From Gammaproteobacteria bacterium (GTDB taxonomy: Bacteria; Pseudomonadota; Gammaproteobacteria; SURF-13): 64,000 nucleotides of DNA. Positions within the stretch are counted from its first letter, which is position 1. Every line of letters begins with the position of its first letter. The notes below the pieces were generated by a model, which was not told where the DNA came from, made no database searches, and saw nothing but the letters and a program-made list of their open reading frames with translations. Position numbers and translations under genes: made by a program. The DNA lies in NCBI GenBank assembly GCA_016195665.1, contig JACPZD010000024.1, positions 99,130 through 163,129 on the forward strand. The letters run 5' to 3'. Positions 4,358 to 60,793 of this stretch are shown here, one piece after another.

Positions 4358-5666
<1,309 letters not shown>

Positions 5667-5670
<4 letters not shown>

Positions 5671-5876
5671 TGTTTCGACTCCGGCCTGCTCAGCAGCTTA
5701 TAAGCCTTCAGAAGACCGCCCACAAACCCCAGGCAGCCAAGGATGAACATGAAGAGGGGGAGGGTATCCAACCATACATCGAGGCCATATCCCAATATCA
5801 GACCGGCCAGCACCATGGAGGAGAGTATGCTGCCAACTCCAATCAGCGCCAACCCGGTTCCCCTGGCCTTGTTCAC
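5667..5876 (-). CDS. AtpZ/ATPase_gene1-like small membrane protein; start uncertain (GTG at 5876, or ATG at 5972/5990 overlapping the permease gene)
   Basis: The C-terminal 65 aa (...GTGLALIGVGSILSSMVLAGLILGYGLDVWLDTLPLFMFILGCLGFVGGLLKAYKLL) match the PF09527-type putative F0F1-ATPase subunit pattern (two TM helices, GY.LD motif). The 4-nt overlap with atpI suggests co-transcription. Confidence 0.4.
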
Positions 5877-5931
5877 AGCGCGCGCATTATAAAGGTTGGG
5901 AGGGCACGGCGTCAACGAAATACGGAGAATT

Positions 5932-6708
5932 TCAGGCCAGCAGACGGCGGCGCAGCAGTATACAGGCCACATACAGCCCCGCCGCGCCATACAGTATCAG
6001 GACGCCCAGATGGAGGAGAGGATGGGTGAGGGCCTGTCCGGTCATGAGCGGGCGCACCAACTCCACGGCGTGGGTGAGGGGCAATACCTGCGCCCCCCAT
6101 CGCACGGCCTTGGGCATGGCCTCCAAGGGGAAAAAGGTGCCGCTTAACAGAAACATCGGGGTAATGACGAGCGTGAAGTAATACACGAAAAAGTCATAAC
6201 TCTTGGCGAACGCGGTGACGCACAGCGCGAGCGCGGCAAACGACGTACCCGCCAGCAGCACCAGCGGCAGCACCCATAGCGCGCGCAGATCGTGCACCAG
6301 CCCCAGCCCCGCCGCCACCGCGACGATGGGCGCGACCGACAGCAGGCTCTTGGCGCCGGCCCAAACTATCTCGCCCAACGCGATGTCATCCACGATGAGC
6401 GGTGTGGCAAGCATGCCGCCCCAGGTTTGCTGGTGAGCCATGCGCGTGTAGGCGGAGAACAGGGCTTCAAAGGTCGCGGTGTTCATGGCGCTCGCGCACA
6501 CCAAACCTGAGGCGAGAAACACGCTGTAGGGCATGCCCTGCATCTCGCCGACAAACGCGCCGAGCCCGAAGCCGAGCGCGAACAGGTAGAGCAGCGGCTC
6601 GATGAAGTTACCGAGCATGGCGGGGCCGAGCAGCTTGCGCCACACCAGAAAATTGCGCCGCCAGACATGCAGGAAGCGCAGACTCATGGCGGGTAAGGGG
6701 TGGCTCAT
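5932..6708 (-). CDS. ABC-2 type transporter permease (NodJ/YadH-like)
   Basis: 259 aa from the internal Met MSHPLPAMSLRFLHVWRRNF... The N-terminal 132 aa of the listed 390-aa ORF is a low-complexity Arg/Pro artefact that overlaps the upstream ATPase gene. Six-TM ABC-2 permease features. Confidence 0.8.
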   Translation of the reverse strand: MSHPLPAMSLRFLHVWRRNFLVWRKLLGPAMLGNFIEPLLYLFALGFGLGAFVGEMQGMPYSVFLASGLVCASAMNTATFEALFSAYTRMAHQQTWGGMLATPLIVDDIALGEIVWAGAKSLLSVAPIVAVAAGLGLVHDLRALWVLPLVLLAGTSFAALALCVTAFAKSYDFFVYYFTLVITPMFLLSGTFFPLEAMPKAVRWGAQVLPLTHAVELVRPLMTGQALTHPLLHLGVLILYGAAGLYVACILLRRRLLA

Positions 6709-6710
6709 GC

Positions 6711-7634
6711 TCAATCCCGTAGATCGCGTCCGGTGAGTTTGAGAAACACGTCTTCCAGATTGCCGGGGCGGTGCAGATAGCGCAGTTGAGGGCATGCCCT
6801 CAAGTCGGCGAGCAAGGCATGGGCGTCGTGGGTGTAGCAAAACACCGTCTCGCCGATATGCTCGGCGCGCACCATCAGCGCACGCGCGGGGCCGTTGAGC
6901 CAGGATTCGACATCGGGGCCGTGCACTTCCACCACTTGCGGCTCGATGTGGCGCTGAATGAGGCCCGCTGGGCTGTCCTCGGCGAGGATGCGTCCGTGAT
7001 CCATCACCGCGATGCGACTGCACAGGCGCTCGGCCTCTTCCATGTAGTGTGTGGTGAGAATCAGCGTCTTGCCTTGCGCCATGAGGGTGCGCAGGCGCTG
7101 CCACAACATCTGTCGGGCCTGCGGGTCGAGCCCGGTGGTGGGCTCATCGAGAATCAGCAGTTGGGGGTCGTTGATGAGCGCGCGGGCCAGCGTGAGCCGG
7201 CGTTTCATGCCGCCGGATAAGGTGTTGATCCCCGCCTGCGCCTTGCCCTCCAAGGCGGCGAAGGTCAATACTTCATGGATGCGGGCCTCCAGCACCGGAC
7301 CGGAGAGGCCGAAATAACTGGCGTAGACACGCAGGTTTTCGATGACTGTAAAATCCGGGTCGAGGTTGTCCTGCTGCGGCACCACACCGATGCGCGCGCG
7401 CATTTCGCGCGCATGTTCAGGCACGGGATAACCGAGCACCTTGAGCGCGCCGCCGCCGGGGGGCGTTACGCCGAGCAGCATGCGTAGCGTGGTGGTCTTG
7501 CCCGCGCCGTTGGGGCCGAGCAGCCCGAAACATTCGCCGGGCCGCACGCGCAGATCCACGCCGTCCACCACCGGTACGCCGCCGTAAAACTTGCGCAGCC
7601 CCCGCGCCTCGATCACTGCCTGGGTCGCTTCCAT
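6711..7634 (-). CDS. ABC transporter ATP-binding protein (NodI/YadG-like)
   Basis: Walker A GPNGAGKTT, signature LSGGMKRR, Walker B LLILDEPT; stop/start overlaps the downstream permease. Confidence 0.9.
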   Translation of the reverse strand: MEATQAVIEARGLRKFYGGVPVVDGVDLRVRPGECFGLLGPNGAGKTTTLRMLLGVTPPGGGALKVLGYPVPEHAREMRARIGVVPQQDNLDPDFTVIENLRVYASYFGLSGPVLEARIHEVLTFAALEGKAQAGINTLSGGMKRRLTLARALINDPQLLILDEPTTGLDPQARQMLWQRLRTLMAQGKTLILTTHYMEEAERLCSRIAVMDHGRILAEDSPAGLIQRHIEPQVVEVHGPDVESWLNGPARALMVRAEHIGETVFCYTHDAHALLADLRACPQLRYLHRPGNLEDVFLKLTGRDLRD

Positions 7635-8587: not shown

Positions 8588-8729
8588 CTCCTTAAGGGAT
8601 CTCTGATTTATTCATACTGAACCGCCAAGACGCCAAGAACGCCAAGATTTTTCCTTACAATCGTCAAGCTCTTTTCTTGGCGGCCTTGGCGCCTTGGCGG
8701 TTGGCGATATATTTTTCAGAGCTTCCTTA
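8588..8729. mobile_element. family-A MITE-like palindromic element (CCGCCAAGACGCCAAGAACGCCAAGA ... TCTTGGCG.CCTTGGCGCCTTGGCGG core, CTTAAGG.A.CTCTGA-type terminal inverted repeats)
   Basis: About 140 bp between the SnoaL-like gene and coq7; near-identical copies at 19808, 39136 and 50598. Confidence 0.8.
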
Positions 8730-8733
8730 ATAC

Positions 8734-13775: not shown

Positions 13776-15325
13776 GGTGTTACCTCCGGCACCGTGACAG
13801 GGGTGACATCGAGGCCTCTGGATGCCGTCACCGCTGCGCTCACCAGGGCGCGCGCCTTGCTCATGGTCTCTTCCCATTCCTGACGCGGCACCGAATCCGC
13901 GACGATGCCCGCGCCCGCCTGCACGTGCAGCATGCCGTCTTTGAGGACGGCGGTGCGGATCGCAATCGCGGTGTCCATGTTGCCGTTCCAGCCGAGATAT
14001 CCCACCGCGCCGGAATATATACCGCGCTTCACCGGTTCCAGTTCGTCAATGATTTCCATGGCACGGATTTTTGGCGCACCGCTCACCGTGCCTGCCGGAA
14101 AAGTAGCACGCAAGGCGTCCAACGCCGTCATGCCCTTTTTTAAGCGCCCCGCGACGTTGGAGACGATGTGCATGACATGTGAATAACGCTCGATGATCAT
14201 TTTCTCCGTAAGCTTCACGCTGCCGGTCTCGGCGACACGCCCCACGTCGTTGCGCCCCAAGTCTATCAACATCAAATGTTCGGCGCGCTCTTTCGGATCG
14301 GCGAGCAGCTCCTGCTCCAGCGCGCGGTCCTCCTCTTCGGTACCACCGCGCCTGCGCGTCCCGGCGATAGGGCGTACGGTAATCACGCCGTCTTCCAGGC
14401 GCGTCAAGATCTCCGGCGAGGAACCGACCACATGAAAATCGCTGAGATCCAGATAAAACATATAAGGCGACGGGTTCAGCGCGCGCAGCGCGCGGTAAAA
14501 ATTCAACGCGCTGCCTGCATACGGCGCAGTGAGGCGCTGCGACAACATCACCTGCATGATGTCGCCTTCCACGATGTAATGCTTGACGCGCGCGACGGCT
14601 TGTTCAAAACCCTGTTGCGTGAAGCCGGACACGAAATCCTCTTCGCGTAGGGTATGCACGGTGTCATGCGGATGCGGTGTAGCATGCTGCAATCGCTCGA
14701 CGAGTTCGTCGAGCCTGGCCTGCGCCTTGTTCCAGGCATCTTCCAACGCGGGATTGACGTGGATCACCAGATACAGTTTGCCGCTCAAATTATCGAACAC
14801 CACCACTTCATCCGATACCATGAGCAGAATGTCCGGCGTGCCGAGCGCGTCGGGTTTGGTGCACTTGGCCAGGCGCGGCTCGATGTAGCGCACCGTACCG
14901 TAACCGAAGTAACCGACCAGCCCCCCGGTGAAGCGCGGCAGTCCCGCCGCGGGCGCTATTTTGTAGCGCGCCTGAAACTGCTCGATCCAGGTCAGCGGAT
15001 CGTCGCTCTGCATGCGCTCAATAATCGCACCGTCTTTTTCCACCGTGATGTCATGACCGGAGACGCGCATGATGGTGCGGCAGGGGAGTCCGATGATGGA
15101 GTAGCGCCCCCACTTTTCACCGCCCTGCACCGATTCGAATAAGTATGAATAAGGCGCGGTCGCTCCCGGCATCCTGCCTCCCGCGACACTAGTATGTCCT
15201 TGTGCGTCGTCGGCGAGTTTGAGGTAGGCACTGAGCGGCGTGTCGAGGTCGGCACAGACCTCGCGTACCAGCGGAATGCGGTTATAACCCTGGCGCGCCA
15301 GGGCGTCGAATAGTTGCGGTGTCAT
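13766..15325 (-). CDS. trpE: anthranilate synthase component I, carrying a 17-aa in-frame insertion near the N-terminus
   Basis: 519 aa; LLESVQGG-type motif ([19 protein letters not shown]) and C-terminal chorismate-binding domain. The sequence [17 protein letters not shown] interrupts the normally contiguous LKLAD-AP-YS region. Confidence 0.95.
15158..15208 (-). repeat. 51-nt in-frame coding-embedded element, copy 1 (in trpE)
   Basis: Sense strand cGACGCACAAGGACATACTAGTGTCGCGGGAGGCAGGATGCCGGGAGCGAC; translated [17 protein letters not shown]; 48/51 identical to the copies in lysA and gpmI. Confidence 0.9.
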
Positions 15326-19782: not shown

Positions 19783-19807
19783 AAAGGCGCCCATCGCAAA
19801 CGCTTAT

Positions 19808-19945
19808 AGGGAAACTCTGAAAAATATATCGCCAACCGCCAAGGCGCCAAGGTCACCAAGAAAAAAGGCTTGAATTTGTAAAGAAAAGTCTTGGCGTTCT
19901 TGGCGTCTTGGCGGTTCAACATGCATAAATCAGAGCTTCCTGCTG
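19808..19945. mobile_element. family-A MITE-like element
   Basis: GGGAAACTCTGAAAAATATATCGCCAACCGCCAAGGCGCCAAGGTCACCAAGAAAAAAGGCTTGAATTTGTAAAGAAAAGTCTTGGCGTTCTTGGCGTCTTGGCGGTTCAAC...CAGAGCTTCC, almost base-for-base identical to 39136..39270; between the REC gene and the CHASE kinase. Confidence 0.85.
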
Positions 19946-26675: not shown

Positions 26676-26891
26676 GAGCCACCCTCGGGTTAGCTATAAA
26701 GTACAGGAGGTGCTGCGTACTAAGAAAAATACGCGCAAACATTGTACCTTTTTGCATATATCGTCAACTATCGGATTTTCTTGAGCGAATCGGCCCTGGC
26801 CCATGGCCAGCCAAGGCGGATACTGATAGATTATAAAGTCTCGCAGCTATCGCAGGTCACATTGCGCAGCTACGTGACGACTGATAAAAAA

Positions 26892-26966
26892 CTCACCGCT
26901 GAGAACGCAGAGGTGTTTGGGGTGTCTTGAAATAACACATCTCCTCTGTGTCCTCAGCGGTAAAGT
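26892..26966. repeat. family-B palindromic element (ACCGC.GAGGACGC.GAGG ... CCTC.GCGTCCTC.GCGGT)
   Basis: CTCACCGCTGAGAACGCAGAGGTGTTTGGGGTGTCTTGAAATAACACATCTCCTCTGTGTCCTCAGCGGTAAAG; upstream of the CDF transporter. Shares the internal GAGGTGTTTGGGG...TGAAATAAC core with the 46330 copy. Confidence 0.8.
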
Positions 26967-26990
26967 CTTTTCACCCGCGGACATCATACT

Positions 26991-27941
26991 ATGCATAGCC
27001 ACGATCATTATGCAGCAATGGAAAAACCGGTGGTTGCGGGAACAGACCATCATGGCCACTCCCATGCGCGCGGCGAGGGGAACCGCCGGTTGCTGGGTTA
27101 TGCGTTCATAGTCACGCTGCTGTTTGCCGCCGTAGAGGGCGTGAGCGGCTGGTGGGCGGGTTCGCTGGCCTTGCTGGGTGACGCCGGCCACATGGTGAGC
27201 GACGCCAGCGCCTTGGCGCTGGCCCTGCTCGCGGCCTGGGTGGCGCGCAGCCCTGTGTCGGCGCGCCATTCTTACGGCTTGGGCCGGGCCGAGGTGGTGG
27301 TGGCTTTGTTTAATGGCTTACTGATGCTGGCCATCGTCGCGGGCATCGTGGTGTCGGCGATTGAGCGTCTGCGCGCCCCTACTCCGGTCATGGCCGGCGC
27401 CGTCATCGTGGTGGCGGCCTTGGGTCTGCTGGTCAATCTGGCGGTGGCTGTTCTGCTCAGCCGCGGCGAGCAGACCCTTAATCTGCGCGCCGCGTTGCTG
27501 CACGTGATGGCGGATCTGCTCGGCTCGGTCGCCGCGCTTGCCTCGGGCGTGGTGATTTATCTCACCGGCTGGGCCGCCATAGACCCTATCCTGTCCCTGT
27601 TCATCTGCGTATTGATTCTCTACTCCAGCATCCACCTGCTGCGCGAGGCGCTGCACGTCATCATGGAAGGCGTGCCGCCGGGTCTGGACTTACCGGAGAT
27701 CGGCTGCGCGCTTGCGACGGTTAAAGGTGTGCGTTCGGTGCATGACCTGCACATCTGGACGCTGTCTTCGGGCATGGTCGCGCTTTCAGCCCACATCATG
27801 GTGAGCGACCTCGCGCACTGGGAGGAAACATTGGCCGGACTGCGCACGCTGCTGCACGACCGTTACGGCATCGAACACGTCACCCTGCAGCCGGAGCCGA
27901 CGACGCATATCTTGAGGCCGTTGAAATACCCGCAAATGTAA
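26991..27941 (+). CDS. cation diffusion facilitator family divalent metal efflux transporter (CzcD-like)
   Basis: 316 aa; His-rich N-terminus, six TM segments, conserved HxxxD motifs (LGDAGHMVSD, LHVMADLLGS), C-terminal cytoplasmic domain. Confidence 0.9.
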   Translation: MHSHDHYAAMEKPVVAGTDHHGHSHARGEGNRRLLGYAFIVTLLFAAVEGVSGWWAGSLALLGDAGHMVSDASALALALLAAWVARSPVSARHSYGLGRAEVVVALFNGLLMLAIVAGIVVSAIERLRAPTPVMAGAVIVVAALGLLVNLAVAVLLSRGEQTLNLRAALLHVMADLLGSVAALASGVVIYLTGWAAIDPILSLFICVLILYSSIHLLREALHVIMEGVPPGLDLPEIGCALATVKGVRSVHDLHIWTLSSGMVALSAHIMVSDLAHWEETLAGLRTLLHDRYGIEHVTLQPEPTTHILRPLKYPQM

Positions 27942-27944
27942 TTT

Positions 27945-28062
27945 ATCGCAGAGGACGCAGAGAGGAACGCAAGCAAAAATACACAAACCGCGGAGGACGC
28001 GGAGAAATAAGGTCAAAAAGATTCAGCTTTCCCCCCGCGTCCTCCGCGGTGACGATTTTAAT
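27945..28062. repeat. family-B element, compound/duplicated copy
   Basis: …CGCAGAGGACGCAGAGAGGAACGC…ACCGCGGAGGACGCGGAGAAATAAGG…CCCGCGTCCTCCGCGGTGACG; between the CDF gene and typA. Confidence 0.75.
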
Positions 28063-31107: not shown

Positions 31108-31144
31108 TTAGGGAACCTCTGACTTAATCAGAGGTTCCCTAAAT
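31108..31144. repeat. family-E perfect palindrome GGGAACCTCTGA.TTAATCAGAGGTTCCC
   Basis: TTAGGGAACCTCTGACTTAATCAGAGGTTCCCTAAAT in the VIT-xseB spacer. Confidence 0.8.
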
Positions 31145-31204
31145 ATAAAAAAGCATACACCGCAAAGGCGTAGAGAGATACGATCTTCTGTATTGACTTC
31201 TCCT

Positions 31205-31232
31205 CTGCGTCCTCAGCGGTAAACTGTATTTA
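31205..31232. repeat. family-B half-element (CTCCTCTGCGTCCTCAGCGGTAAA)
   Basis: Only one arm is present, in the VIT-xseB spacer. Confidence 0.5.
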
Positions 31233-31255
31233 TGGAAGAATCCGAGAGCGTCACC

Positions 31256-34440: not shown

Positions 34441-34896
34441 ATGGCCGCCCTGTACACCCTCAAGATTCTGACCGATTTCGCCAGCGCCCACACCCTGCGT
34501 GACTACCCCGGCGACTGCAGCCGCATGCACGGCCACAACTGGAAGGTGGAGGTCGAGGTCATCGCGCGGCACTTGGATGAGGTGGGCATGGGCTTGGATT
34601 TCAAGGTCATCAAAGAGGCGACCCGCGCACTCGCCCAACGGCTCGACCATCACTATTTGAACGACATCGAGCCGTTTGACAAGGTCAATCCGACCGCGGA
34701 AAACATAGCCGCCTATTTTTATCAGGGTCTGTCGCAGCGTCTCAATAATCCGCGCGTGCGGGTGAGCGCCGTCACGCTGTGGGAGACGGATCGCGCCTGC
34801 GTGCGTTACAGCGACGAGGCGGTCGAAGGGGAACCTCTGATTAAATCAGAGGTTCCCGCGATACAGGGATGTATTGCCATTACTCAATCGCATTAA
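34441..34896 (+). CDS. queD: 6-carboxy-5,6,7,8-tetrahydropterin synthase with a roughly 25-aa C-terminal extension encoded by a palindromic repeat
   Basis: Core CSRMHGHNWKVEVEV... and WETDRACVRY match QueD/PTPS. The tail EGEPLIKSEVPAIQGCIAITQSH is translated from a family-E palindrome (34838..34866) and the hairpin that follows. Confidence 0.85.
   Translation: MAALYTLKILTDFASAHTLRDYPGDCSRMHGHNWKVEVEVIARHLDEVGMGLDFKVIKEATRALAQRLDHHYLNDIEPFDKVNPTAENIAAYFYQGLSQRLNNPRVRVSAVTLWETDRACVRYSDEAVEGEPLIKSEVPAIQGCIAITQSH
34838..34866. repeat. family-E palindrome embedded in the 3' end of queD
   Basis: GAACCTCTGATTAAATCAGAGGTTCCC, translated in frame as ...EGEPLIKSEVPA... in the QueD tail. Confidence 0.8.
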
Positions 34897-35862: not shown

Positions 35863-35933
35863 CTGTCGTAGGTCGGTCAAGCCTGTCCTGGGGAAAGATG
35901 CGATAGCCCAGTCCAGTATAGAATACATAAAAG

Positions 35934-36010
35934 ACCTCACCGCGGAGGACGCGGAGAGTAAATTAAATTATCTTTGATCTTACTGCTCTGCGTCCTCTGC
36001 GGTTATATTA
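35934..36010. repeat. family-B palindromic element
   Basis: CCTCACCGCGGAGGACGCGGAGAGTAAATTAAATTATCTTTGATCTTACTGCTCTGCGTCCTCTGCGGTTATATT; between folE2 and the aspartic protease. Confidence 0.8.
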
Positions 36011-36017
36011 AATTAAT

Positions 36018-36659
36018 CTAATTCTTCTTTCGTAATTCCATTATTTTTTCTTTGTGCTGAATCTCCAGTTTTCCCAGGAACGACATACCCAGCAACACCT
36101 CGGTGGGGCTGTCGCCGGCGATGACCGCAGCGTCAACATCGCGTAACTCGATCTCACCGACCTTGACCTTGGCGAGTTTGATCATAAAAGCCTCCGCCAT
36201 GCCTGAGGCGGTGTTCACCGCCGTGCGCTGGCCGTCGAGACGGTAGCTTAGCCCCAGCCGTTTAGCCTCGTTGGCGTTCATGGCGATGAAGGTCGCGCCG
36301 GTATCCAACAGAAAATTCACCGGCAGGCCGTTGATGCTGCCGACCGTGGTGTACATGCCCGCCGGATTGGGATAAACCTGAACGGCGGTGTGTTTGGACG
36401 CGGCGAGTCGAGTGTTGACCTGGCTGCCCAGCGGATAGCTGCGGCGCTTGCCTTCCACCTCCAGCACCGCGCCGTTGCTGCTGGCGGATATGAGGGTGAC
36501 GCCCTCCGGGCTGGTTTGTCCCGGCGCGAGGCTGCGTTGTTTGCCGTTGATGCTGACCACGGCCTTGTCCTTGAACAGCCCCAGCATCATGATGTCACCC
36601 GCCGTCGCCGGCAGGCTGCTGAGCGCAGCCAGTATTCCCGCTATCTTGATAAATCGCAT
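36018..36659 (-). CDS. retropepsin-like (clan AA, TIGR02281-type) aspartic protease with signal peptide
   Basis: 213 aa; signal MRFIKIAGILAALSSLPATA; catalytic LLDTGATFIAM motif. Confidence 0.75.
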   Translation of the reverse strand: MRFIKIAGILAALSSLPATAGDIMMLGLFKDKAVVSINGKQRSLAPGQTSPEGVTLISASSNGAVLEVEGKRRSYPLGSQVNTRLAASKHTAVQVYPNPAGMYTTVGSINGLPVNFLLDTGATFIAMNANEAKRLGLSYRLDGQRTAVNTASGMAEAFMIKLAKVKVGEIELRDVDAAVIAGDSPTEVLLGMSFLGKLEIQHKEKIMELRKKN

Positions 36660-39135: not shown

Positions 39136-39270
39136 TTAAGGAAACTCTGAAAAATATATCGCCAACCGCCAAGGCGCCAAGGTCACCAAGAAAAAAGGCT
39201 TGAATTTGTAAAGAAAAGTCTTGGCGTTCTTGGCGTCTTGGCGGTTCAACATGATCAGAGCTTCCTTAAG
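39136..39270. mobile_element. family-A MITE-like element with perfect CTTAAGGAA.CTCTGA / TCAGAGCTTCCTTAAG termini
   Basis: Between lptM and lysA; CTTAAG ends read like target-site or TIR boundaries. Confidence 0.85.
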
Positions 39271-39304: not shown

Positions 39305-40600
39305 ATGCAACCCTTCACCTATCGCAATAACCGGCTGTTCGCCGAGGACGTGGATCTTGGAGTCCTCGCCGATCTCTACGGCACGCCGTGTTATGTCTAT
39401 TCGCGCGCGGCGATGGAGGAACGCTGGCGCGCCTTCGATCAGGCGTTTGCCGGGTGCAGGCATCTGGTCTGCTACGCCGTCAAGGCCAACTCCAATCTCG
39501 CCGTGCTCAACCTGCTGGCGCGGCTGGGTTCGGGCTTTGATATCGTCTCGGGCGGAGAGCTGGAGCGTGTCCTGGCTGCGGGGGGCGATCCCGGCAAGGT
39601 GATTTTTTCAGGTGTCGGCAAGACCGGCATGGAGATGCAGCGTGCCCTGGAGGTTGGCATTCTGTGTTTCAACGTCGAGTCCGAGGCCGAACTGGAATGT
39701 CTCAATGAGGTCGCGGGACGCCTGGGACGGCGCGCGCCGGTCTCGCTGCGCGTGAATCCCGATATTGACGCGCGCACTCATCCTTATATCTCCACCGGCC
39801 TCGCCGGAAACAAGTTCGGGATAGACATTACCGCCGCCCATGAGGTCTACCGGCGGGCTGCGGCGATGCAGCACATCGAGGTGCTGGGCGTGGACTGCCA
39901 TATCGGTTCGCAGTTGACCGAAGTCGAGCCTTTTGTGGAGGCTCTTGAGCGGGTATTGTCCCTGGTGGACAGGCTAGAGGATGATGGCATCGCACTCCGC
40001 CATCTGGATCTCGGCGGCGGACTGGGCATCCGGTATTCGGACGAGACGCCGCTGGAGCCCGCGCAATACGCCGCGGCATTGCTTCCGCAACTCAGGAACC
40101 GGGATTATCAAATTTTGATTGAGCCCGGACGCGCCATCGCCGGCAACGCCGGGATCTTGTTGACCCGGGTCGAATATATAAAGCATAGCCGGCACAAGAA
40201 CTTCGTGATCGTGGACGCCGCCACGAACGACCTCATACGGCCCGCCCTGTATAATGCCTACCATGCCATCCGGCCGGTGCAGGAGCGTACCGGCGACGTA
40301 CAGGGACATACTAGTGTCGCGGGAGGCAGGACGCCGGGAGCGACCGAGGCGCAGATCTATGATGTGGTCGGCCCGGTGTGCGAAAGCGGCGATTTTTTGG
40401 GCCGGGATCGCAGCTTGAACGTGCAACGCAACGATCTTCTGGCGATCTTTTCGGCGGGCGCCTATGGTATGAGCATGAGCTCCAATTACAACACCCGCCC
40501 GCGCGCGGCGGAGGTGATCGTGGACGGCGCCCGGCACCACCTTGTGCGCGCACGCGAGACGGTGGTGGAACTGTTTGCGGGCGAAAAACTGTTGCCGTAG
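39305..40600 (+). CDS. lysA: diaminopimelate decarboxylase, carrying the 17-aa in-frame insertion
   Basis: 431 aa; PLP site CYAVKANSN, C-terminal VVGPVCESGDFL; insertion [17 protein letters not shown] just before the conserved YDVVGP. Confidence 0.95.
   Translation: MQPFTYRNNRLFAEDVDLGVLADLYGTPCYVYSRAAMEERWRAFDQAFAGCRHLVCYAVKANSNLAVLNLLARLGSGFDIVSGGELERVLAAGGDPGKVIFSGVGKTGMEMQRALEVGILCFNVESEAELECLNEVAGRLGRRAPVSLRVNPDIDARTHPYISTGLAGNKFGIDITAAHEVYRRAAAMQHIEVLGVDCHIGSQLTEVEPFVEALERVLSLVDRLEDDGIALRHLDLGGGLGIRYSDETPLEPAQYAAALLPQLRNRDYQILIEPGRAIAGNAGILLTRVEYIKHSRHKNFVIVDAATNDLIRPALYNAYHAIRPVQERTGDVQGHTSVAGGRTPGATEAQIYDVVGPVCESGDFLGRDRSLNVQRNDLLAIFSAGAYGMSMSSNYNTRPRAAEVIVDGARHHLVRARETVVELFAGEKLLP
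40294..40344 (+). repeat. 51-nt in-frame coding-embedded element, copy 2 (in lysA)
   Basis: cGACGTACAGGGACATACTAGTGTCGCGGGAGGCAGGACGCCGGGAGCGAC; translated [17 protein letters not shown]. Confidence 0.9.
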
Positions 40601-40648
40601 CAAGCTGTGTTGAATTACGGCCTGCCGCGCCCAATATCAGTAAACATA

Positions 40649-40718
40649 TTCACCGCAGAGGACGCGGAGGAATGTGATTAGGATGATGAATTTCACCTCC
40701 GCGTCCTCTGCGGTGATG
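40649..40718. repeat. family-B palindromic element
   Basis: ATTCACCGCAGAGGACGCGGAGGAATGTGATTAGGATGATGAATTTCACCTCCGCGTCCTCTGCGGTGATG; lysA-hslV spacer. Confidence 0.8.
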
Positions 40719-40756
40719 TTTTTTTCATCGTAGTAAGGCTCAATAGAGGCTAATCA

Positions 40757-41311: not shown

Positions 41312-42652
41312 ATGACGATGCTGACACCTAAGGAAATCGTCCAGGAACTGGACAAACACATCATCGGCCAGGGCGCGGCGAAGCGTGCGGTGGCGATTGC
41401 GCTCCGCAACCGCTGGCGGCGCGGGCAGGTCAGCGAGGACTTGCGCAATGAGATCACGCCCAAGAATATTCTGATGATCGGTCCGACCGGCGTGGGCAAG
41501 ACCGAGGTCGCGCGCCGCCTCGCCAAGCTGGCCAGCGCGCCGTTCATCAAGGTTGAGGCCACCAAATTCACTGAGGTGGGTTACGTGGGGCGTGATGTGG
41601 AATCCATCATCCGCGACCTGCTGGACACCGCCATCAAGATGACGCGCGAGGAAGAAATGAAAAAGGTGCGGCACCGCGCCGAGGAGAGCGCCGAGGAGCG
41701 CATCCTGGATATCCTGCTGCGTCCCGCACGCCAGCCGGCCTTTGTTCCGTCCGATGCGGCGGTGGTTGCGGAAGAGTCGTCTACGCGCCAGACCTTTCGC
41801 AAAAAACTGCGCGAAGGCGAATTCGATGAGCGTGAGATCGAGGTCGAACTCAGCGCCGTTCCCATTGGCGTGGAGATCATGGCGCCGCCCGGCATGGAGG
41901 AGATGACCAGTCAGTTGCAGGGGATGTTTCAAAATCTTGCCGGCAGCCGCACCCGTACCCGCAAGCTGCGCGTCAAGGAGGCTTTTAAATTGCTGACCGA
42001 TGAAGCGGCAGCCAAGCTCATAGATGAAGAGGCCCTCAAGACCCGCGCCATACAAAACGTCGAGCAGAACGGCATCGTATTCATAGACGAGATAGACAAG
42101 ATCACCTCGCGATCGGAACGTATGGGAGCGGATGTCTCGCGCGAAGGCGTGCAGCGCGATCTGTTGCCGCTGGTGGAAGGGAGTACGGTGTCCACCAAGT
42201 ACGGCATGGTCAAGACCGATCATATTCTGTTCATCGCATCGGGCGCGTTTCATCTTTCCAAGCCCTCCGATCTCATCCCCGAATTGCAGGGCCGCCTGCC
42301 GATACGTGTCGAACTGGATGCGCTGGGCGCGCAGGATTTTGTGCGTATTTTGACCGAGCCGGACGCCTCACTTACTGAGCAATACAGCGCGCTGTTGGCG
42401 ACCGAGGGTGTACACTTGAGTTTCACGCCGGACGGCATTTCCCGCCTCGCCGAGATCGCCTGGCAGGTCAACGAGCGCACCGAGAACATCGGCGCACGCC
42501 GGCTGCATACGGTGATGGAGCGTCTGCTGGAGACGATCTCCTTCGGTGCGTCAGAGCAAGCGGGTCAGAGCTTCGAGATCAACGCCGCATACGTGGACGA
42601 ACATCTCCGCGAACTGGCAGAGAATGAGGATTTGAGCAGGTATATACTTTGA
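41312..42652 (+). CDS. hslU: ATP-dependent protease ATPase subunit HslU
   Basis: [20 protein letters not shown]..., Walker [16 protein letters not shown]. Confidence 0.95.
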
Positions 42653-42917
42653 AGGCTGATACAAGAGGAAAGATACAAGATACAAGAGGGATAAAGTTTG
42701 TACTTTTCTCTTGTATCTTTTCTCTTGTATCTGTACCTATGCGCCCCACTGAAATCAAGCTGCACCAAAAATCGCGGATCTGAGCAGGTATATACTTTGA
42801 AGGCTGATACAAGAGGAAAGATACAAGATACAAGAGGGATAAAGTTTTGTACTTTTCTCTTGTATCTTTTCTCTTGTATCTGTATCTATGCGTCCCACTG
42901 AAATTAAACTGCATCAA
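42640..42917 (+). repeat. roughly 138-bp tandem duplication (two units, 42640..42777 and 42778..42917) spanning the hslU 3' end, a GATACAA-heptamer hairpin, and the 5' end of the DUF971 gene
   Basis: Unit sequence TGAGCAGGTATATACTTTGAAGGCTGATACAAGAGGAAAGATACAAGATACAAGAGGGATAAAGTTTGTACTTTTCTCTTGTATCTTTTCTCTTGTATCTGTA.CTATGCG.CCCACTGAAAT.AA.CTGCA.CAAAAATCGCG repeats with about 5 mismatches and 1 indel. The first unit carries a truncated copy [14 protein letters not shown] (42739..42783). Confidence 0.9.
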
Positions 42918-43241
42918 AAATCGCGCATGCTGGAGATCAGCTTCGACGACGGCGCCCGTTTCGATCTGCCCTGCGAGTACCTGCGCGTGTATTCGCCCTC
43001 GGCGGAGGTGCGCGGTCACGGCCCCGGTCAGGAGGTGTTGCAGGTGGGCAAGGAGCAGGTCAACATCAGCGCCATAGACCCGGTCGGCAGCTATGCGGTG
43101 CGCCTGCATTTCGATGACGGCCACAACACGGGGCTTTATTCGTGGGATCTGCTCTATGAGCTCGGTGCACATCGGCAGGAAAAATGGCAGGCCTATCTGG
43201 AACGGCTGCAGCGGGCAGGTCACACGCGCAAAGAAGCATGA
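42888..43241 (+). CDS. DUF971 (gamma-butyrobetaine hydroxylase-like N-terminal domain) protein; first 13 codons are duplicated upstream
   Basis: 117 aa, conserved partner upstream of ubiE. Its start ([13 protein letters not shown]) recurs at 42739..42783 inside the tandem duplication. Confidence 0.7.
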
Positions 43242-46319: not shown

Positions 46320-46329
46320 CTGATTAAAA

Positions 46330-46404
46330 CTTACCGCTGAGGACGCGGAGGTGTTTGGGGGGCATGAAATAACGCACCTCCTCTGCGATCTCTGCGGTTA
46401 TATT
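46330..46404. repeat. family-B palindromic element
   Basis: CTTACCGCTGAGGACGCGGAGGTGTTTGGGGGGCATGAAATAACGCACCTCCTCTGCGATCTCTGCGGTTATATT; between ubiB and the orphan membrane protein. Confidence 0.8.
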
Positions 46405-46433
46405 TTGCAGCGGCGAAGGCCGGATTTCTTTTC

Positions 46434-48037: not shown

Positions 48038-48217
48038 GTTCAACTCCTTTGTTTAATGGGGTCAATTGCCAGGTTAATGTCAATCTACCCCATTTATTAA
48101 GCGACATTTTCAAAACGAATGCAAATAATTGTGTGCCTTGTCAGGGGGCGGAATAACGGGGCTGATACTTAGAGCATATCCATAAATAGTTCCCCTGTGT
48201 CCCTTGCGGTGAAAAAG

Positions 48218-48288
48218 CTTCACCGCGGAGGACGCGGAGGAGAAACAAATCCTTCTTGATTCCTCTGCGCCCTCTGCGGTAAATTATT
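48218..48288. repeat. family-B palindromic element
   Basis: CTTCACCGCGGAGGACGCGGAGGAGAAACAAATCCTTCTTGATTCCTCTGCGCCCTCTGCGGTAAATTA; upstream of the lmo0937-like gene and sulP. Confidence 0.8.
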
Positions 48289-48393
48289 TATGGATAAGTT
48301 CTTAGATGCTTTGGGATATTTTGGGTTACGACAAATGCCTAGCCGGTCCTACGAATACCGCGAGCTACTCGTCATGAACGGTTTTAATCAGCT

Positions 48394-50597: not shown

Positions 50598-50715
50598 AGA
50601 GTTGAACCGCCAAGACGCCAAGAACGCCAAGATTTTTCCTTCAATTCAAGCCTTTTTTCTTGGTGATCTTGGAGCCTTGGCGGTTGATGATATATTTTCA
50701 GAGTTTCCCTAGGTT
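50598..50715. mobile_element. family-A element, inverted orientation, left terminus truncated
   Basis: GTTGAACCGCCAAGACGCCAAGAACGCCAAGATTTTTCC...TTCTTGGTGATCTTGGAGCCTTGGCGGTTGATGATATATTTTCAGAGTTTCCCTAGG; between ctpA and the DJ-1 gene. Confidence 0.8.
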
Positions 50716-53477: not shown

Positions 53478-53525
53478 GAGAACGCTTATCTTGTATCTTG
53501 TATCTTTTCCCTTGTATCTGGTTCT
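53468..53525. repeat. family-C GATACAA/TTGTATC heptamer-array hairpin
   Basis: GATACAAGCATGAGAACGCTTATCTTGTATCTTGTATCTTTTCCCTTGTATCTGG between gpmI and envC. Confidence 0.75.
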
Positions 53526-55122
53526 AATGAACAAACTCCACCAGGCTATCGCCGCTCATCTCGGAGGGGATGTCCAAGTTCATAAGGTGCAGCAGGGTCG
53601 GGGCGACATCGGCCAGGGTCCCGCCTTTGGTCATCTTGGCGGGCCGGCCGACGTAGATCAACGGCACCGGGTTGGTGGTATGCGCGGTGTGCGCCTGACC
53701 GGTGCCCTCGCCGATGAGCTGCTCCGCGTTGCCGTGATCGGCGGTGACGAGCAACTCGCCGCCGACCTTTTTTAGGGCCTCGACGATGCGACCGAGGCAG
53801 GCGTCTATGGTTTCAATCGCCTTAACGGTGGCGTCAAGGTTGCCGGTATGTCCGACCATGTCCGGGTTGGCGAAGTTGCAGATGACGGTATCGTAGGTGC
53901 GGCTCTCGATGGCCTGCACCAACTGGTCGGTGAGTTGCACCGCGCTCATCTGCGGCTGCAAGTCGTAGGTAGCGACGTGCGGCGAGGGGATCAGGATGCG
54001 ATCTTCGCCCACAAACGGCTGCTCCTCTCCGCCGTTAAAAAAGAAGGTCACGTGCGCGTATTTTTCGGTCTCGGCGATGCGCAGTTGACGTAAACCCTGT
54101 TCCGCGACATAGGCCCCGAAGACGTTTTTCAGGCGCTCCGGCGGAAAGGCCACCGGCACGGGGAAGTCCTCGCTGTAATCGGTGAGGGTGACAAAGCCGC
54201 CGAGCTTGGGCATGGCCTCGCGCCTGAAACCGGTGAAGTTCGGCTCGATGAAGGCGCGCGTGATCTGGCGCGCACGGTCGGAGCGGAAATTCATGAAGAT
54301 CACCACATCGCCGTCCTCGATGCGCACCGGTTGTTGAGTCGCTCCCGGCATCCTGCCTCCCGCGACACTAGTACTTCCCTGTACGTCGCCCTGCGGAACG
54401 ATGGCGGTGGCCTTGACGAACTCGTCGGACTCGCCGCGCGCATAGGCCATCTCGAGGGCCTGCATGGCGGTCTCGGCGCGAAACTCCGCCTTTCCCAGCG
54501 TGATGAGGTCGTAGGCCGCTTGAATACGCGGCCAGCGGTGATCGCGGTCCATCGCGTAATAGCGGCCTATGATCGAGGCGAAGCGGCCCTTGCCCAAGGC
54601 ATCGAACTTATCCTGCATGGCCTTGATGGAAGCCGTCGCGCTCTTTGGCGAGGTATCGCGGCCGTCCAAAAAGGCGTGCAGATACACGCGCGCCGCGCTG
54701 CGCCGCGCCGCCAATTCGGCCATGGTGTGGATGTGCTCTTCATGGCTGTGCACGCCGCCGTCGGACAGCAGCCCCAGCATGTGCACCGCCTTGTTATTGG
54801 CGACGGCCTGATCCACGGCCTTGGTCAACGCCTCGTTGGTGAAGAACGAACCGGTCTTGATGGCGCGGCTGATGCGGCTGAATTCCTGATAGACGATGCG
54901 TCCCGCGCCGAGATTGAGGTGCCCCACCTCGGAATTGCCCATCTGATCGGCGGGCAGGCCGACATCCGTCCCCGAGGTGCTGATGAGCGTGTGCGGGTAA
55001 TTTTTCCAAAGGCCGTCCCACACCGGTTTGCGGGCGGCGAGTATGGCGTTGCCTACCGGATTTTCGCTATAGCCCCAGCCATCCAGAACGATGAGCACCA
55101 TGGGGCGATGTGTCAAAGGCAT
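53524..55122 (-). CDS. gpmI: 2,3-bisphosphoglycerate-independent phosphoglycerate mutase, carrying the 17-aa in-frame insertion
   Basis: Start [20 protein letters not shown]; catalytic Ser region [12 protein letters not shown]; insertion [17 protein letters not shown] within ...ATAIVPQG|...|[10 protein letters not shown]. Confidence 0.95.
54338..54388 (-). repeat. 51-nt in-frame coding-embedded element, copy 3 (in gpmI)
   Basis: Sense strand cGACGTACAGGGAAGTACTAGTGTCGCGGGAGGCAGGATGCCGGGAGCGAC; translated [17 protein letters not shown]. Confidence 0.9.
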
Positions 55123-55268
55123 GGATTTAATCCTGCACACGGCCGAGTGTTGGCTGGTTCCGGACAACCGGGGAAACGCAAAGACAATGGCATGAAAGGC
55201 GTTATAACTATAAAATAGGCGTTTATAAGCAAATTATACAATTTTCTTCCCTATTCGGTATACAGCGC

Positions 55269-59426: not shown

Positions 59427-60682
59427 TGGACATCAAAAAGTACATGCATGACGTTGGGCAGCGTGCGCGGCGCGCGGCGCGCACGCTGAGCAAGGCCGGC
59501 ACAGAGGCAAAAAACACCGCCCTGCTCGCGGCGGCCGAGGCCGTCGAGCGGGATGAGGCCGCACTGCTTGCGGCCAACAAAAAGGACATGGACGCCGCCC
59601 GCCAGGCCGGTCTCGACGCCGCCATGCTGGATCGCCTGGAGTTGAACGAGGTGCGCGTGAAGAGCATGGCCGAAGGACTGCGCCAGATCGCGGCCTTGCC
59701 CGATCCGGTCGGTGAAATCACCGATCTCAAATACCGCCCGGCCGGTTTTCAGGTCGGCAAGATGCGCGTGCCGCTCGGTGTGATCGGCATCATTTACGAG
59801 TCGCGTCCCAATGTCACGGCCGACGCCGCGGGACTGTGCCTCAAGGCGGGCAATGCCGCCATCCTGCGCGGCGGCTCCGAGGCGCTGCATTCCAATCAAG
59901 CCATCGCCGCCTGCATCCACGCGGGGCTCAAACGCGCCGGCTTGCCGGAGGATGCCGTACAGGTCATCGAGACCAGCGACCGTGCCGCAGTCGGCGAGTT
60001 GATCCGCATGAAGCAGTACGTGGACGTGATCGTGCCGCGCGGCGGAAAGGGCCTGATCGAGCGCGTCAGCAAGGAGGCCACGGTGCCGGTGCTGAAACAC
60101 CTGGATGGCGTCTGCCATGTGTACATAGACGACAAGGCCGATGTCGAGAAGGCCGTCAAGGTCGCCTACAACGCCAAGACCCAGCGTTACGGCACCTGCA
60201 ATACCATGGAAACGCTATTGATCGCCAAGGATATCGCCCCGCGCGTGTTGCCACGACTCGCCAAGATGTATCAAGAGGCCGGTGTGGAACTGCGCGGCGA
60301 CGAGGCGACGCGCGCGTTGGCCCCTGACGCAAAGGCCGCGACCGAAGAAGATTGGAACACCGAATATCTCGCGCCGATACTCGCGGTGCGCGTGGTGAAC
60401 AATATTGACGAGGCCATCGAGCATATCGAGCAGCACGGATCGCAACACACCGACGCCATAGTCACCGAGGATTTTTCTCACGCGCAGCGTTTTCTGCGCG
60501 AAGTGGATTCCAGTTCAGTGATGGTGAACGCCTCCACCCGGCTCGCCGACGGTTTCGAATACGGCTTGGGCGCGGAGATCGGTATCAGCACCGATAAACT
60601 GCACGCGCGCGGCCCGGTGGGGCTGGAGGGGCTGACCACGCAAAAATTCATCGTACTTGGCGAAGGGCATGTTAGAAAATAG
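59426..60682 (+). CDS. proA: gamma-glutamyl phosphate reductase
   Basis: Start [21 protein letters not shown]. The ATG shares its A with the holA TAA stop. Catalytic Cys region [10 protein letters not shown]. Confidence 0.95.
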
Positions 60683-60787
60683 GTTCAAGATACAAGATAC
60701 AAGATACAAGTTAACCCCGTATTTTCCGGAGGGGGATGGCAAGGTTGCCTCCATCTTGTATCTTGTATCTTGTATCTTGTATCTGCC
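60683..60787. repeat. family-C heptamer-array hairpin (4x CAAGATA ... 4x TCTTGTA) with an inner GC-rich hairpin
   Basis: GGTTCAAGATACAAGATACAAGATACAAGTTAACCCCGTATTTTCCGGAGGGGGATGGCAAGGTTGCCTCCATCTTGTATCTTGTATCTTGTATCTTGTATCTGCC between proA and nadD. Confidence 0.85.
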
Positions 60788-60793
60788 TCTCAA

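Follow-up and report, generated by a model that had tools for sequence, protein, structure and literature searches.

A 64,000-nt stretch of DNA from a Gammaproteobacteria bacterium (contig JACPZD010000024.1, positions 99,130 to 163,129, forward strand; hereafter the window) carries a 51-nt sequence three times, each time in frame within a protein gene, namely lysA, trpE and gpmI. We regard this element as a small non-autonomous mobile DNA, akin to REPs (repetitive extragenic palindromes) and the Rickettsia palindromic elements (RPEs), which is translated as a disordered surface loop of its host proteins. We put the probability of this reading at roughly two in three. It draws on what is observed directly: conservation at the nucleotide level, use of several frames and of both strands, exact presence or absence of 51 nt between orthologues, sharp boundaries, covariation within hairpins and location in loops of the host proteins. 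The copies in the window and their host genes are:

40294..40344, plus strand: lysA copy, CGACGT...GAGCGAC, LysA residues 331-347 (17 residues in frame)
15158-15209, minus strand: trpE copy, 17 residues in frame
54337-54388, minus strand: gpmI copy, 17 residues in frame
39305..40600, plus strand: lysA, diaminopimelate decarboxylase, 431 codons
13766..15325, minus strand: trpE, anthranilate synthase component I
53524..55167, minus strand: gpmI, cofactor-independent phosphoglycerate mutase, start codon uncertain

The 51-nt units (40294-40344, 15159-15209 and 54338-54388) are 92-94% identical, and the lysA copy, read directly at 40294-40344 on the plus strand, is CGACGTACAGGGACATACTAGTGTCGCGGGAGGCAGGACGCCGGGAGCGAC. 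Its codons begin at 40295 in the lysA frame. All three copies lie in sense orientation and share one frame, translated as D[VA]QG[HS]TSVAGGR[MT]PGAT. A search of the window allowing up to 3 mismatches gave 0 matches in 100 dinucleotide shuffles, and none of the three copies is expected by chance. Searching the 64-kb window by nhmmer with the family profile returned exactly these 3 copies. A preliminary description of this DNA had singled out the lysA copy by a replacement of Met by Thr. This change, ATG to ACG at 40331-40333, is real, and no other difference is confined to the lysA copy, which nevertheless departs from the trpE copy at 3 nt (T/C, G/A, C/T) and from the gpmI copy at 4 nt (CA/AG, C/T, C/T), i.e. 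at two and three further nucleotides, respectively.

The three copies belong to a larger family. One genome per GTDB species was scanned with the pattern ACNAGNGTNGCNGGNGGNAGNNNNCCNGGNGCNAC, which fixes first and second codon positions only, and at least 120 loci with at least 131 copies were retrieved. The third codon positions, left free in the scan, came back almost invariant, in agreement with the nucleotide-level conservation proposed earlier. The consensus of 51 nt reads CGAY-GTRCA-GGGA-TGYAC-NAGT-GTCGC-GGGA-GGC-AGGAN-GCC-GGGA-GCGAC. Among the listed copies conservation starts and stops sharply, spanning the 52 positions from -16 to +35 (C-GAYGTRCAGGGANGYACNAGTGTCGCGGGAGGCAGGANGCCGGGAGCGAC-C). 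The base exchanged in the Met/Thr codon of lysA, 40332, is the family's one hypervariable loop position, with T in 63, C in 34, A in 25 and G in 6 of 128 listed copies. Some listed loci hold tandem arrays with a period of 51 nt. Lengths of 51, 54, 69, 93 and 99 nt occur, each divisible by three, and variants that deviate by 1 nt are found only outside open reading frames (ORFs). In the longer variants the extra sequence lies within the loop of hairpin 1 (see below) and often forms further hairpins with GGA loops.

Among the matches listed, almost all hosts are Gammaproteobacteria, mostly metagenome-assembled genomes (MAGs); a small number of unexpected taxon labels are probably due to mis-binning. 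The listed hosts include Thiohalophilus, Sedimenticola, Ectothiorhodospiraceae, Thiohalomonadales, Acidiferrobacterales, Rhodanobacter and other Lysobacterales, and Cellvibrionales. The family is patchy rather than ubiquitous, since 80 unrelated loci with gpmI homologues (~330 kb) hold no copy. Plasmids yielded a single diverged copy (85% identity), which lies antisense in the primase gene of an 11-kb plasmid of Lonsdalea populi (L211 3001-3052, corresponding to NZ_CP072857.1 3584-3635). Both of its stems are changed compensatorily while the GGA loops are retained, and through this copy the family reaches the Enterobacterales and a cultured strain. Viral contigs gave no matches to the element, and carriage by phages was therefore rejected. 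Rfam has no match at the element (lysA copy, a canonical tandem array and 18 intergenic loci), and a literature search by exact sequence and keywords found no description of the 51-nt family. The list of intragenic REPs in the supplement of PMC3733652 contains none of the element's peptides.

The same DNA is found between genes, on both strands of genes and in several reading frames. A crude gene call places about half of the listed copies within genes, 47 in sense and 23 in antisense orientation (p = 0.006), whereas intergenic listed copies show no orientation bias relative to co-directional neighbour genes (9 same, 12 opposite). The frame used in the window, DVQG.TSVAGGR.PGAT, is the commonest, accounting for ~40 of the 57 confidently called genic copies among those listed. 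The three readings not seen in the window encode mutually unrelated peptides of 17 residues, bringing the frames in use to four, and all three occur in proteins confirmed by Pfam: the first in MutL, PolA, a CysN-like GTPase and Pgl, the second in Mpl, PGM/PMM (three tandem units), GcvT and RecN, and the third in RsmB and DnaE. An extreme case is a single ORF of 4464 nt (L077, ~5470-7460), which may encode a ChpA/FimV-type signalling protein and which holds at least seven copies of the 51- and 69-nt forms on both strands and in three frames. For arrays in Xanthomonadales the mirror antisense frame, suggested by the longest ORF, was rejected, as the G+C content at third codon positions (GC3) places them in the sense DVQG frame. 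The element is open in many frames: the ACT variant is stop-free in four and the ACA variant in all six, the latter being reached by 4% of shuffles.

In the three window proteins the 17 residues are clean insertions relative to known structures, i.e. PDB 3n2b for LysA, PDB 5vpu for GpmI and PDB 7bvd for TrpE. In the AlphaFold model of the window LysA the mean predicted local distance difference test score (pLDDT) is 83, whereas residues 331-346 fall below 50 and lack secondary structure between two strands. The model thus fits an insert that is tolerated as a disordered surface loop. What is found, then, is a palindromic repeat in frame within unrelated protein genes and retained as extra residues.

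Comparison of orthologues revealed gain and loss of the exact unit. Each of the five closest orthologues of LysA (89-97% identity) lacks exactly 17 residues, and at the DNA level the empty site of the 97%-identical orthologues, ACCGG-T-GAGGC, is matched in the window by ACCGG-[51 nt]-C-GAGGC. A diverged copy occupies the same site in an 87%-identical LysA orthologue (L123). Similarly, TrpE orthologues of 82-88% identity, including L205, have the empty site CTCGCCGAC|GCGCCT, while a more distant orthologue (L204) is filled. The L204 copy shares the trpE-specific GCACA variant, which argues for a single trpE insertion inherited by descent. No relative of gpmI with more than 69% identity was found in a metagenome scan for a DNA-level empty site, and without close relatives the gpmI insertion is defined by the alignment with PDB 5vpu alone. 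The most varied site lies in pgl, where the copy is antisense: filled alleles, one of them in an orthologue only 61% identical, stand beside exact empties with the top strand TTT^CGACTT. In L209 (~890-930) only the first 15 nt of the element remain, owing to a 48-nt deletion between GGCGT microhomologies, and in L210 (896-1016) a 51-nt copy is interrupted at G^CGAC by a nested 69-nt copy of the long variant, which points the opposite way. That distant relatives are filled where nearer ones are empty implies that copies were lost precisely, that lineages recombined or that one site was used repeatedly.

These sites also define the ends. The best-fitting boundaries are CGAY...GAGCGAC, 51 nt inserted between a purine and C, which coincide exactly with the coordinates first assigned to the lysA copy. 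Among the listed copies the element is preceded by [not A]-purine and followed by C in 84 of 96 cases, with a purine next in 77 of 96, so that the right flank is weakly CGAC-like. There is no target-site duplication (TSD), as the filled allele of lysA, trpE and pgl exceeds the empty one by exactly 51 nt, leaving no more than one C whose assignment is ambiguous. Terminal inverted repeats (TIRs) are likewise absent, the ends being a 4-nt direct repeat, CGAY...CGAC. Interpretation of this repeat as a 4-nt CGAC target duplication was rejected, because the left end is CGAT in 42 of 128 listed copies while the right end is CGAC, and because the empty lysA site lacks CGAC.

The preliminary description had proposed to compare synonymous divergence within the three window copies to that of their flanks. 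As lysA, trpE and gpmI are not homologous to one another, we recast this comparison on orthologous filled copies, and the outcome was the predicted one: third positions are less diverged in the element than in the flanks. Between the window and L123, identity at codon positions 1/2/3 of lysA is 0.91/0.94/0.76 in the flanks and 0.94/0.77/0.88 in the element, with a peptide identity of 0.71 for the insert vs 0.87 for the flanks. For trpE (window vs L204) the values are 0.90/0.94/0.64 in the flanks, 0.94/0.82/0.94 in the element, and 0.71 vs 0.89 for the peptide. Binomial tests of element against flank third positions gave p = 2e-5 for trpE and p = 0.06 for lysA. Four of the 12 element substitutions in these comparisons fall on free positions of the family. 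The strongest conservation was measured for the antisense pgl copy, which is identical at 48 of 51 positions between orthologues of only 61% amino-acid identity, with a flank third-position identity of 0.43 (p ~1e-14). Hence, the insert lacks the signature of a constrained peptide and yet changes more slowly than neighbouring third positions. Since the antisense copy is conserved too, a function in the sense mRNA alone is an unlikely source of this conservation. Together with the occurrence of the same DNA in intergenic regions, on both strands and in other frames, the data support the initial proposal that the conserved and copied unit is the nucleotide sequence and not the peptide.

The consensus contains two unlike hairpins, GTRCA-GGGA-TGYAC and GTCGC-GGGA-GGC-AGGAN-GCC-GGGA-GCGAC. 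Its predicted folding, as DNA or RNA and on either strand, gives z = -2.4 to -5.0, and no more than 3 in 200 shuffles reach an equally good fold. In the lysA copy the hairpins are represented by:

40298..40311, plus strand: remnant of hairpin 1, GTACA-GGGA-CATAC (consensus GTRCA-GGGA-TGYAC)
40316..40344, plus strand: hairpin 2, GTCGC-GGGA-GGC-AGGAC-GCC-GGGA-GCGAC, with the variable loop base 40332 behind Met/Thr

Across the family, compensatory changes were found at four pairs:

pair -10:-1 (R:Y of hairpin 1): A:U in 41, G:C in 19 and C:G in 3 listed copies
pair -11:0: T:A replaced by C:G (L207) or G:C (L211)
pair +9:+31: G:C replaced by A:T (L075, L103)
pair +15:+25: G:C replaced by C:G (L003, L211)

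These replacements support the view that the two predicted hairpins have been maintained. The window copies are older, partly decayed members of the family: they fold no better than shuffles (z = -0.3, vs -3.5 to -5 for the consensus), and hairpin 1 is broken by loss of the closing pair in the lysA and trpE copies, in lysA through G to A at 40308, which removes a C:G pair. Both copies have the unusual sequence CATAC at this place (40307-40311 and 15192-15196). The family consensus there is NGYAC, with G in 120 of 128 listed copies, and CATAC is thus rare; the orthologous copies read CCTAC in L123 and CGTGC in L204. The presence of this rare change in two copies of one genome might reflect gene conversion among copies or a subfamily peculiar to this genome.

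We envisage insertion of the element between a purine and C, in many cases at a site resembling CGAC. Nested and tandem copies would fit this preference, because the element itself offers such a site, both on its bottom strand and at its ends. Insertions into surface loops would simply be translated as an unstructured loop of 17 residues and persist, which the unit permits as it comprises 3 x 17 nt without stops in four frames (six in the ACA variant). Copies may also excise precisely, and preferred insertion sites may be used again. More tentatively, and at odds clearly below even, the element might move as folded single-stranded DNA, mobilised by a trans-acting HUH/Y1 transposase of the IS200/IS605 kind or of the REP-associated tyrosine transposase (RAYT) kind. 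A transposase framed by an inverted pair of copies (L021/L079) was considered and rejected, as the two are non-overlapping, far apart on a 146-kb contig and do not flank a gene.

Several points weigh against this account. No transposase or other mobilising gene has been identified, a genome-wide search for one not having been made. The hairpin geometry is much tighter than at characterised IS200/IS605 ends, and base preferences exist on both flanks rather than on the left alone. Moreover, resident copies diverge far less than flanking third codon positions, most extremely in the antisense pgl copy. A passive selfish insertion should decay neutrally, and therefore recurrent re-insertion, gene conversion or selection in place would be needed. 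An exact match to a CsrA-binding consensus, described below, has no account in a model of mobile DNA. Finally, the copies were found with a pattern fixing 22 of the 51 positions, which defines the at least 120 loci listed, and the gene calls are heuristic, based on ORF length and GC3.

Three other explanations were weighed against mobile DNA. We consider it unlikely that the element is, or has become, an RNA-level binding module for CsrA/RsmA, which would place lysA, trpE and gpmI under Csr control or soak up CsrA. In such a scheme, with which an origin as mobile DNA is compatible, the sense unit would display two to four loop GGAs and could clamp a CsrA dimer. The high-affinity CsrA consensus obtained by SELEX comprises 12 nt, RUACARGGAUGU (PMC2896534). 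Indeed, the modal hairpin 1, GUACAGGGAUGU, agrees with it at 12 of 12 positions, an exact match is present in 29 of 134 listed copies, and 111 of 134 keep CANGGANG. Outside the pattern-defined copies only 3 exact matches occur in 0.86 Mb, one of them in a diverged copy. The variable positions of the family include the N positions of the CsrA motif (-7, -3, +22), and the tip of hairpin 2 reads CAGGA(U/C/A)G, the CsrB repeat motif. Every hairpin loop contains GGA, all four such motifs lie on one strand in predicted loops, and GGA loops persist in diverged copies with altered stems and in the extra hairpins of long variants. The lean of genic copies towards sense, seen in all three window copies as well, points in the same direction. 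However, one third of the genic copies are antisense, intergenic copies have no preferred orientation, and the strongest conservation of a resident copy is that of the antisense pgl copy. No GacA box lies within 600 nt of any listed copy, for which reason a Gac-controlled master gene encoding a small RNA (sRNA) was rejected. Rfam gave no match, its CsrB and Rsm families included, and 12% of composition-matched shuffles contain at least four GGA motifs. In the lysA and trpE copies of the window, the closing G of the motif is mutated and hairpin 1 is broken. A combined version, in which a horizontally spreading mobile module with predicted near-optimal CsrA/RsmA hairpins on its top strand would, once landed in coding or untranslated regions, seed Csr control in new genes or titrate CsrA and its copies would be under nucleotide-level selection, appears rather more doubtful still; such selection would explain the low divergence of copies shared by orthologues.

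The remaining two explanations are very improbable. If the 17 residues were a functional or convergent protein motif under amino-acid selection, such as a loop for modification or cleavage, the common frame of the three window copies, which is also the commonest frame among genic copies, would be accounted for. This frame preference might also follow from the target, since purine^C-purine falls on codon boundaries (third C, first G) in GC-rich genes. A peptide motif is already contradicted by third codon positions that are invariant across genera, by the three other frames yielding unrelated peptides in verified proteins and by the many intergenic copies. In addition, identity between orthologues is lower for the peptide than for the host protein (0.71 vs 0.87-0.89), with second positions changing more than third ones. 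It is equally hard to credit that the message loses the element as a mini-intron, or that the ribosome skips it by translational bypass, leaving a protein without it. Structured hairpins inside essential genes would suit such a mechanism, and ribosomal bypass elements of similar size are known from phage T4 gene 60 and yeast mitochondria. However, genic copies are all multiples of three and use stop-free frames only, the variants differing by 1 nt being restricted to regions outside ORFs, and this contradicts removal because neither length nor stops of a removed element would matter. Copies in both orientations and the lack of a match to any ribozyme or intron family also speak against it. Taken together, the evidence favours mobile DNA that is tolerated as a translated loop.

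One genomic context of the family involves a tRNA gene. In two Cellvibrionales genomes (L062, L056) a 23-nt duplicate of the tRNA-Leu 5' end immediately precedes the element (...GGTAGAC|element):

L062 3310-3540: tRNA-Leu 5' end and element
L056 4210-4340: tRNA-Leu 5' end and element, two copies

At the L062 site a strong sigma-70-like promoter lies upstream, and an intact tRNA-Leu gene follows at a short distance. This context was rejected as the origin of the element, which appears to have inserted here into a partly duplicated tRNA 5' end.

The window contains further repeats. One intergenic family is composed of two tandem 9-mers (CGCRGAGGA-CGCGGAGGA), a short spacer and an inverted copy, CCTCCGCGTCCTCTGCGG; one unit lies just past the lysA stop codon, and repeats of the same kind flank the 51-nt element in other MAGs (L017, L033, L054, L116, L118). 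A second intergenic family of ~120-135 nt has three tandem 8-9-mers (CGCCAAGA/CGCCAAGG) and inverted copies; L079 carries a similar CGCAAAGGACGCAAAG repeat. Heptamer arrays (GATACAA/GATACAAG) with inverted partners form a third kind. In L024 the same heptamer array lies between a tRNA gene and an element copy shortly downstream, suggesting that the organisms are related. In style these arrays recall the TAACTGA direct repeats reported for Beggiatoaceae (PMC4679880). The positions are:

26885-26976, 27935-28059, 31196-31235, 35929-36018, 40642-40729, 46323-46413 and 48212-48290: 9-mer repeat family
8593-8730, 19807-19941, 39136-39254 and 50601-50698: 120-135-nt family, two copies of which are 99% identical
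42628-42928 (two tandem 148-nt units), 53486-53525 and 60672-60790: heptamer arrays
34829-34878 region and 31111-31139: perfect 29-nt palindrome GGGAACCTCTGATTAAATCAGAGGTTCCC
34858..34878, plus strand: solitary intergenic hairpin of 8 bp, GCGATACA-GGGA-TGTATTGC, following the palindrome and sharing the ACAGGGATGT loop motif with hairpin 1

By its loop the solitary hairpin is possibly related to the 51-nt family. Lone hairpins with GGA loops resembling it lie near element copies in L014, L043, L089 and L091.

Selfish palindromic DNA inside protein genes is already known from the RPEs of Rickettsia and from intragenic REPs. Distinctive here are a unit of only 51 nt that is near-identical across several orders of Gammaproteobacteria and read in four frames in core enzymes, including those of replication and repair, as well as exact gain and loss, nesting and tandem growth. 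The family thus offers a natural system to study how surface loops are acquired and tolerated, how the smallest mobile DNAs move and why resident copies remain so conserved. In practice, the 17-residue insertions will confuse alignments of orthologues, domain boundaries and annotation of MAGs unless they are recognised as repeats. If the resemblance to CsrA sites were meaningful, it would link mobile DNA to the rewiring of a global post-transcriptional regulon, and a mobile module of this type would be the first bacterial case of a transposable element that carries the binding sites of a global regulator acting post-transcriptionally.

Among known systems, the CsrB/RsmZ sponges share with the element repeated GGAs in hairpin loops, the exact RUACARGGAUGU match and ~25 nt between two loop GGAs. 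In contrast to them, the element is dispersed and mobile, occurs in ORFs on both strands and has no Rfam family match; it is not a free-standing sRNA gene, and no GacA box, promoter or terminator was found. The RPEs are a closer parallel. As summarised in PMC10969869, they are short palindromes inserted in frame in unrelated housekeeping genes, and also between genes (Ogata et al. 2000), whose peptides form extra segments compatible with the host fold. The 51-nt element likewise is an in-frame palindromic repeat in unrelated genes, is kept as extra residues and occurs in intergenic regions. This likeness is one of behaviour. RPE-1, according to the same source, measures ~100-150 bp and resides in Rickettsia, i.e. 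in Alphaproteobacteria, whereas the element has 51 nt with two unlike hairpins, four frames and hosts in orders of Gammaproteobacteria.

REPs and their RAYTs provide a second parallel: REPs are GC-rich stem-loop repeats, some of them intragenic and then often in replication or repair genes, and a CGTC-tagged class is without known transposase (Di Nocera et al. 2013, PMC3733652). The element resembles them in its GC-rich stem-loops, its hosts in replication and repair (MutL, PolA, DnaE, RecN), its tandem or grouped occurrence and its nesting in palindromes. Unlike GTAG-REPs and REPINs, its consensus contains neither GTAG nor CTAC. CGTC-REPs have a 5'-CGTC tag, a stem of 8-9 bp starting with A/T pairs, a loop of 4-5 nt and a CCA tail (PMC3733652). 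In the element the tag is 5'-GACG, the mirror of 5'-CGTC, the stem has 5-6 bp and the CCA tail is lacking, so that agreement is limited to the 4-nt loop and the first pairs T:A and A:T. The arrangement differs as well, as two different hairpins stand in direct order instead of one hairpin or an inverted dimer.

Classical MITEs (miniature transposons with inverted repeats), such as Correia, ERIC and the Coxiella QMITE, have TIRs and TSDs and are usually 100-400 bp long (PMC5896051, PMC10969869). The element shares their non-autonomous, multicopy nature and occasional in-frame genic insertion, but has neither TIRs nor a TSD and measures 51 nt. These features lead to IS200/IS605 elements and the miniature forms derived from them, the palindrome-associated transposable elements (PATEs), which carry a distinct imperfect hairpin near each end, have no TIR or TSD, excise seamlessly and prefer particular flanks. 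Known IS200/IS605 ends are of greater length, and their cleavage sites lie 10-20 nt away from the foot of the hairpin. Different subterminal hairpins and absence of TIR and TSD are all found in the element; its cleavage sites would, however, lie 0-4 nt from the hairpin foot, and both flanks are biased. PATEs lie 3' of a fixed tetra- or pentanucleotide, which stays at the left flank; in the element that flank is [not A]-purine, and the right flank is biased as well (C, then purine, CGAC-like). In mechanistic terms the element nevertheless most resembles a minimal member of the IS200/IS605 type; with its 51 nt it would be far smaller than any other example of that type.

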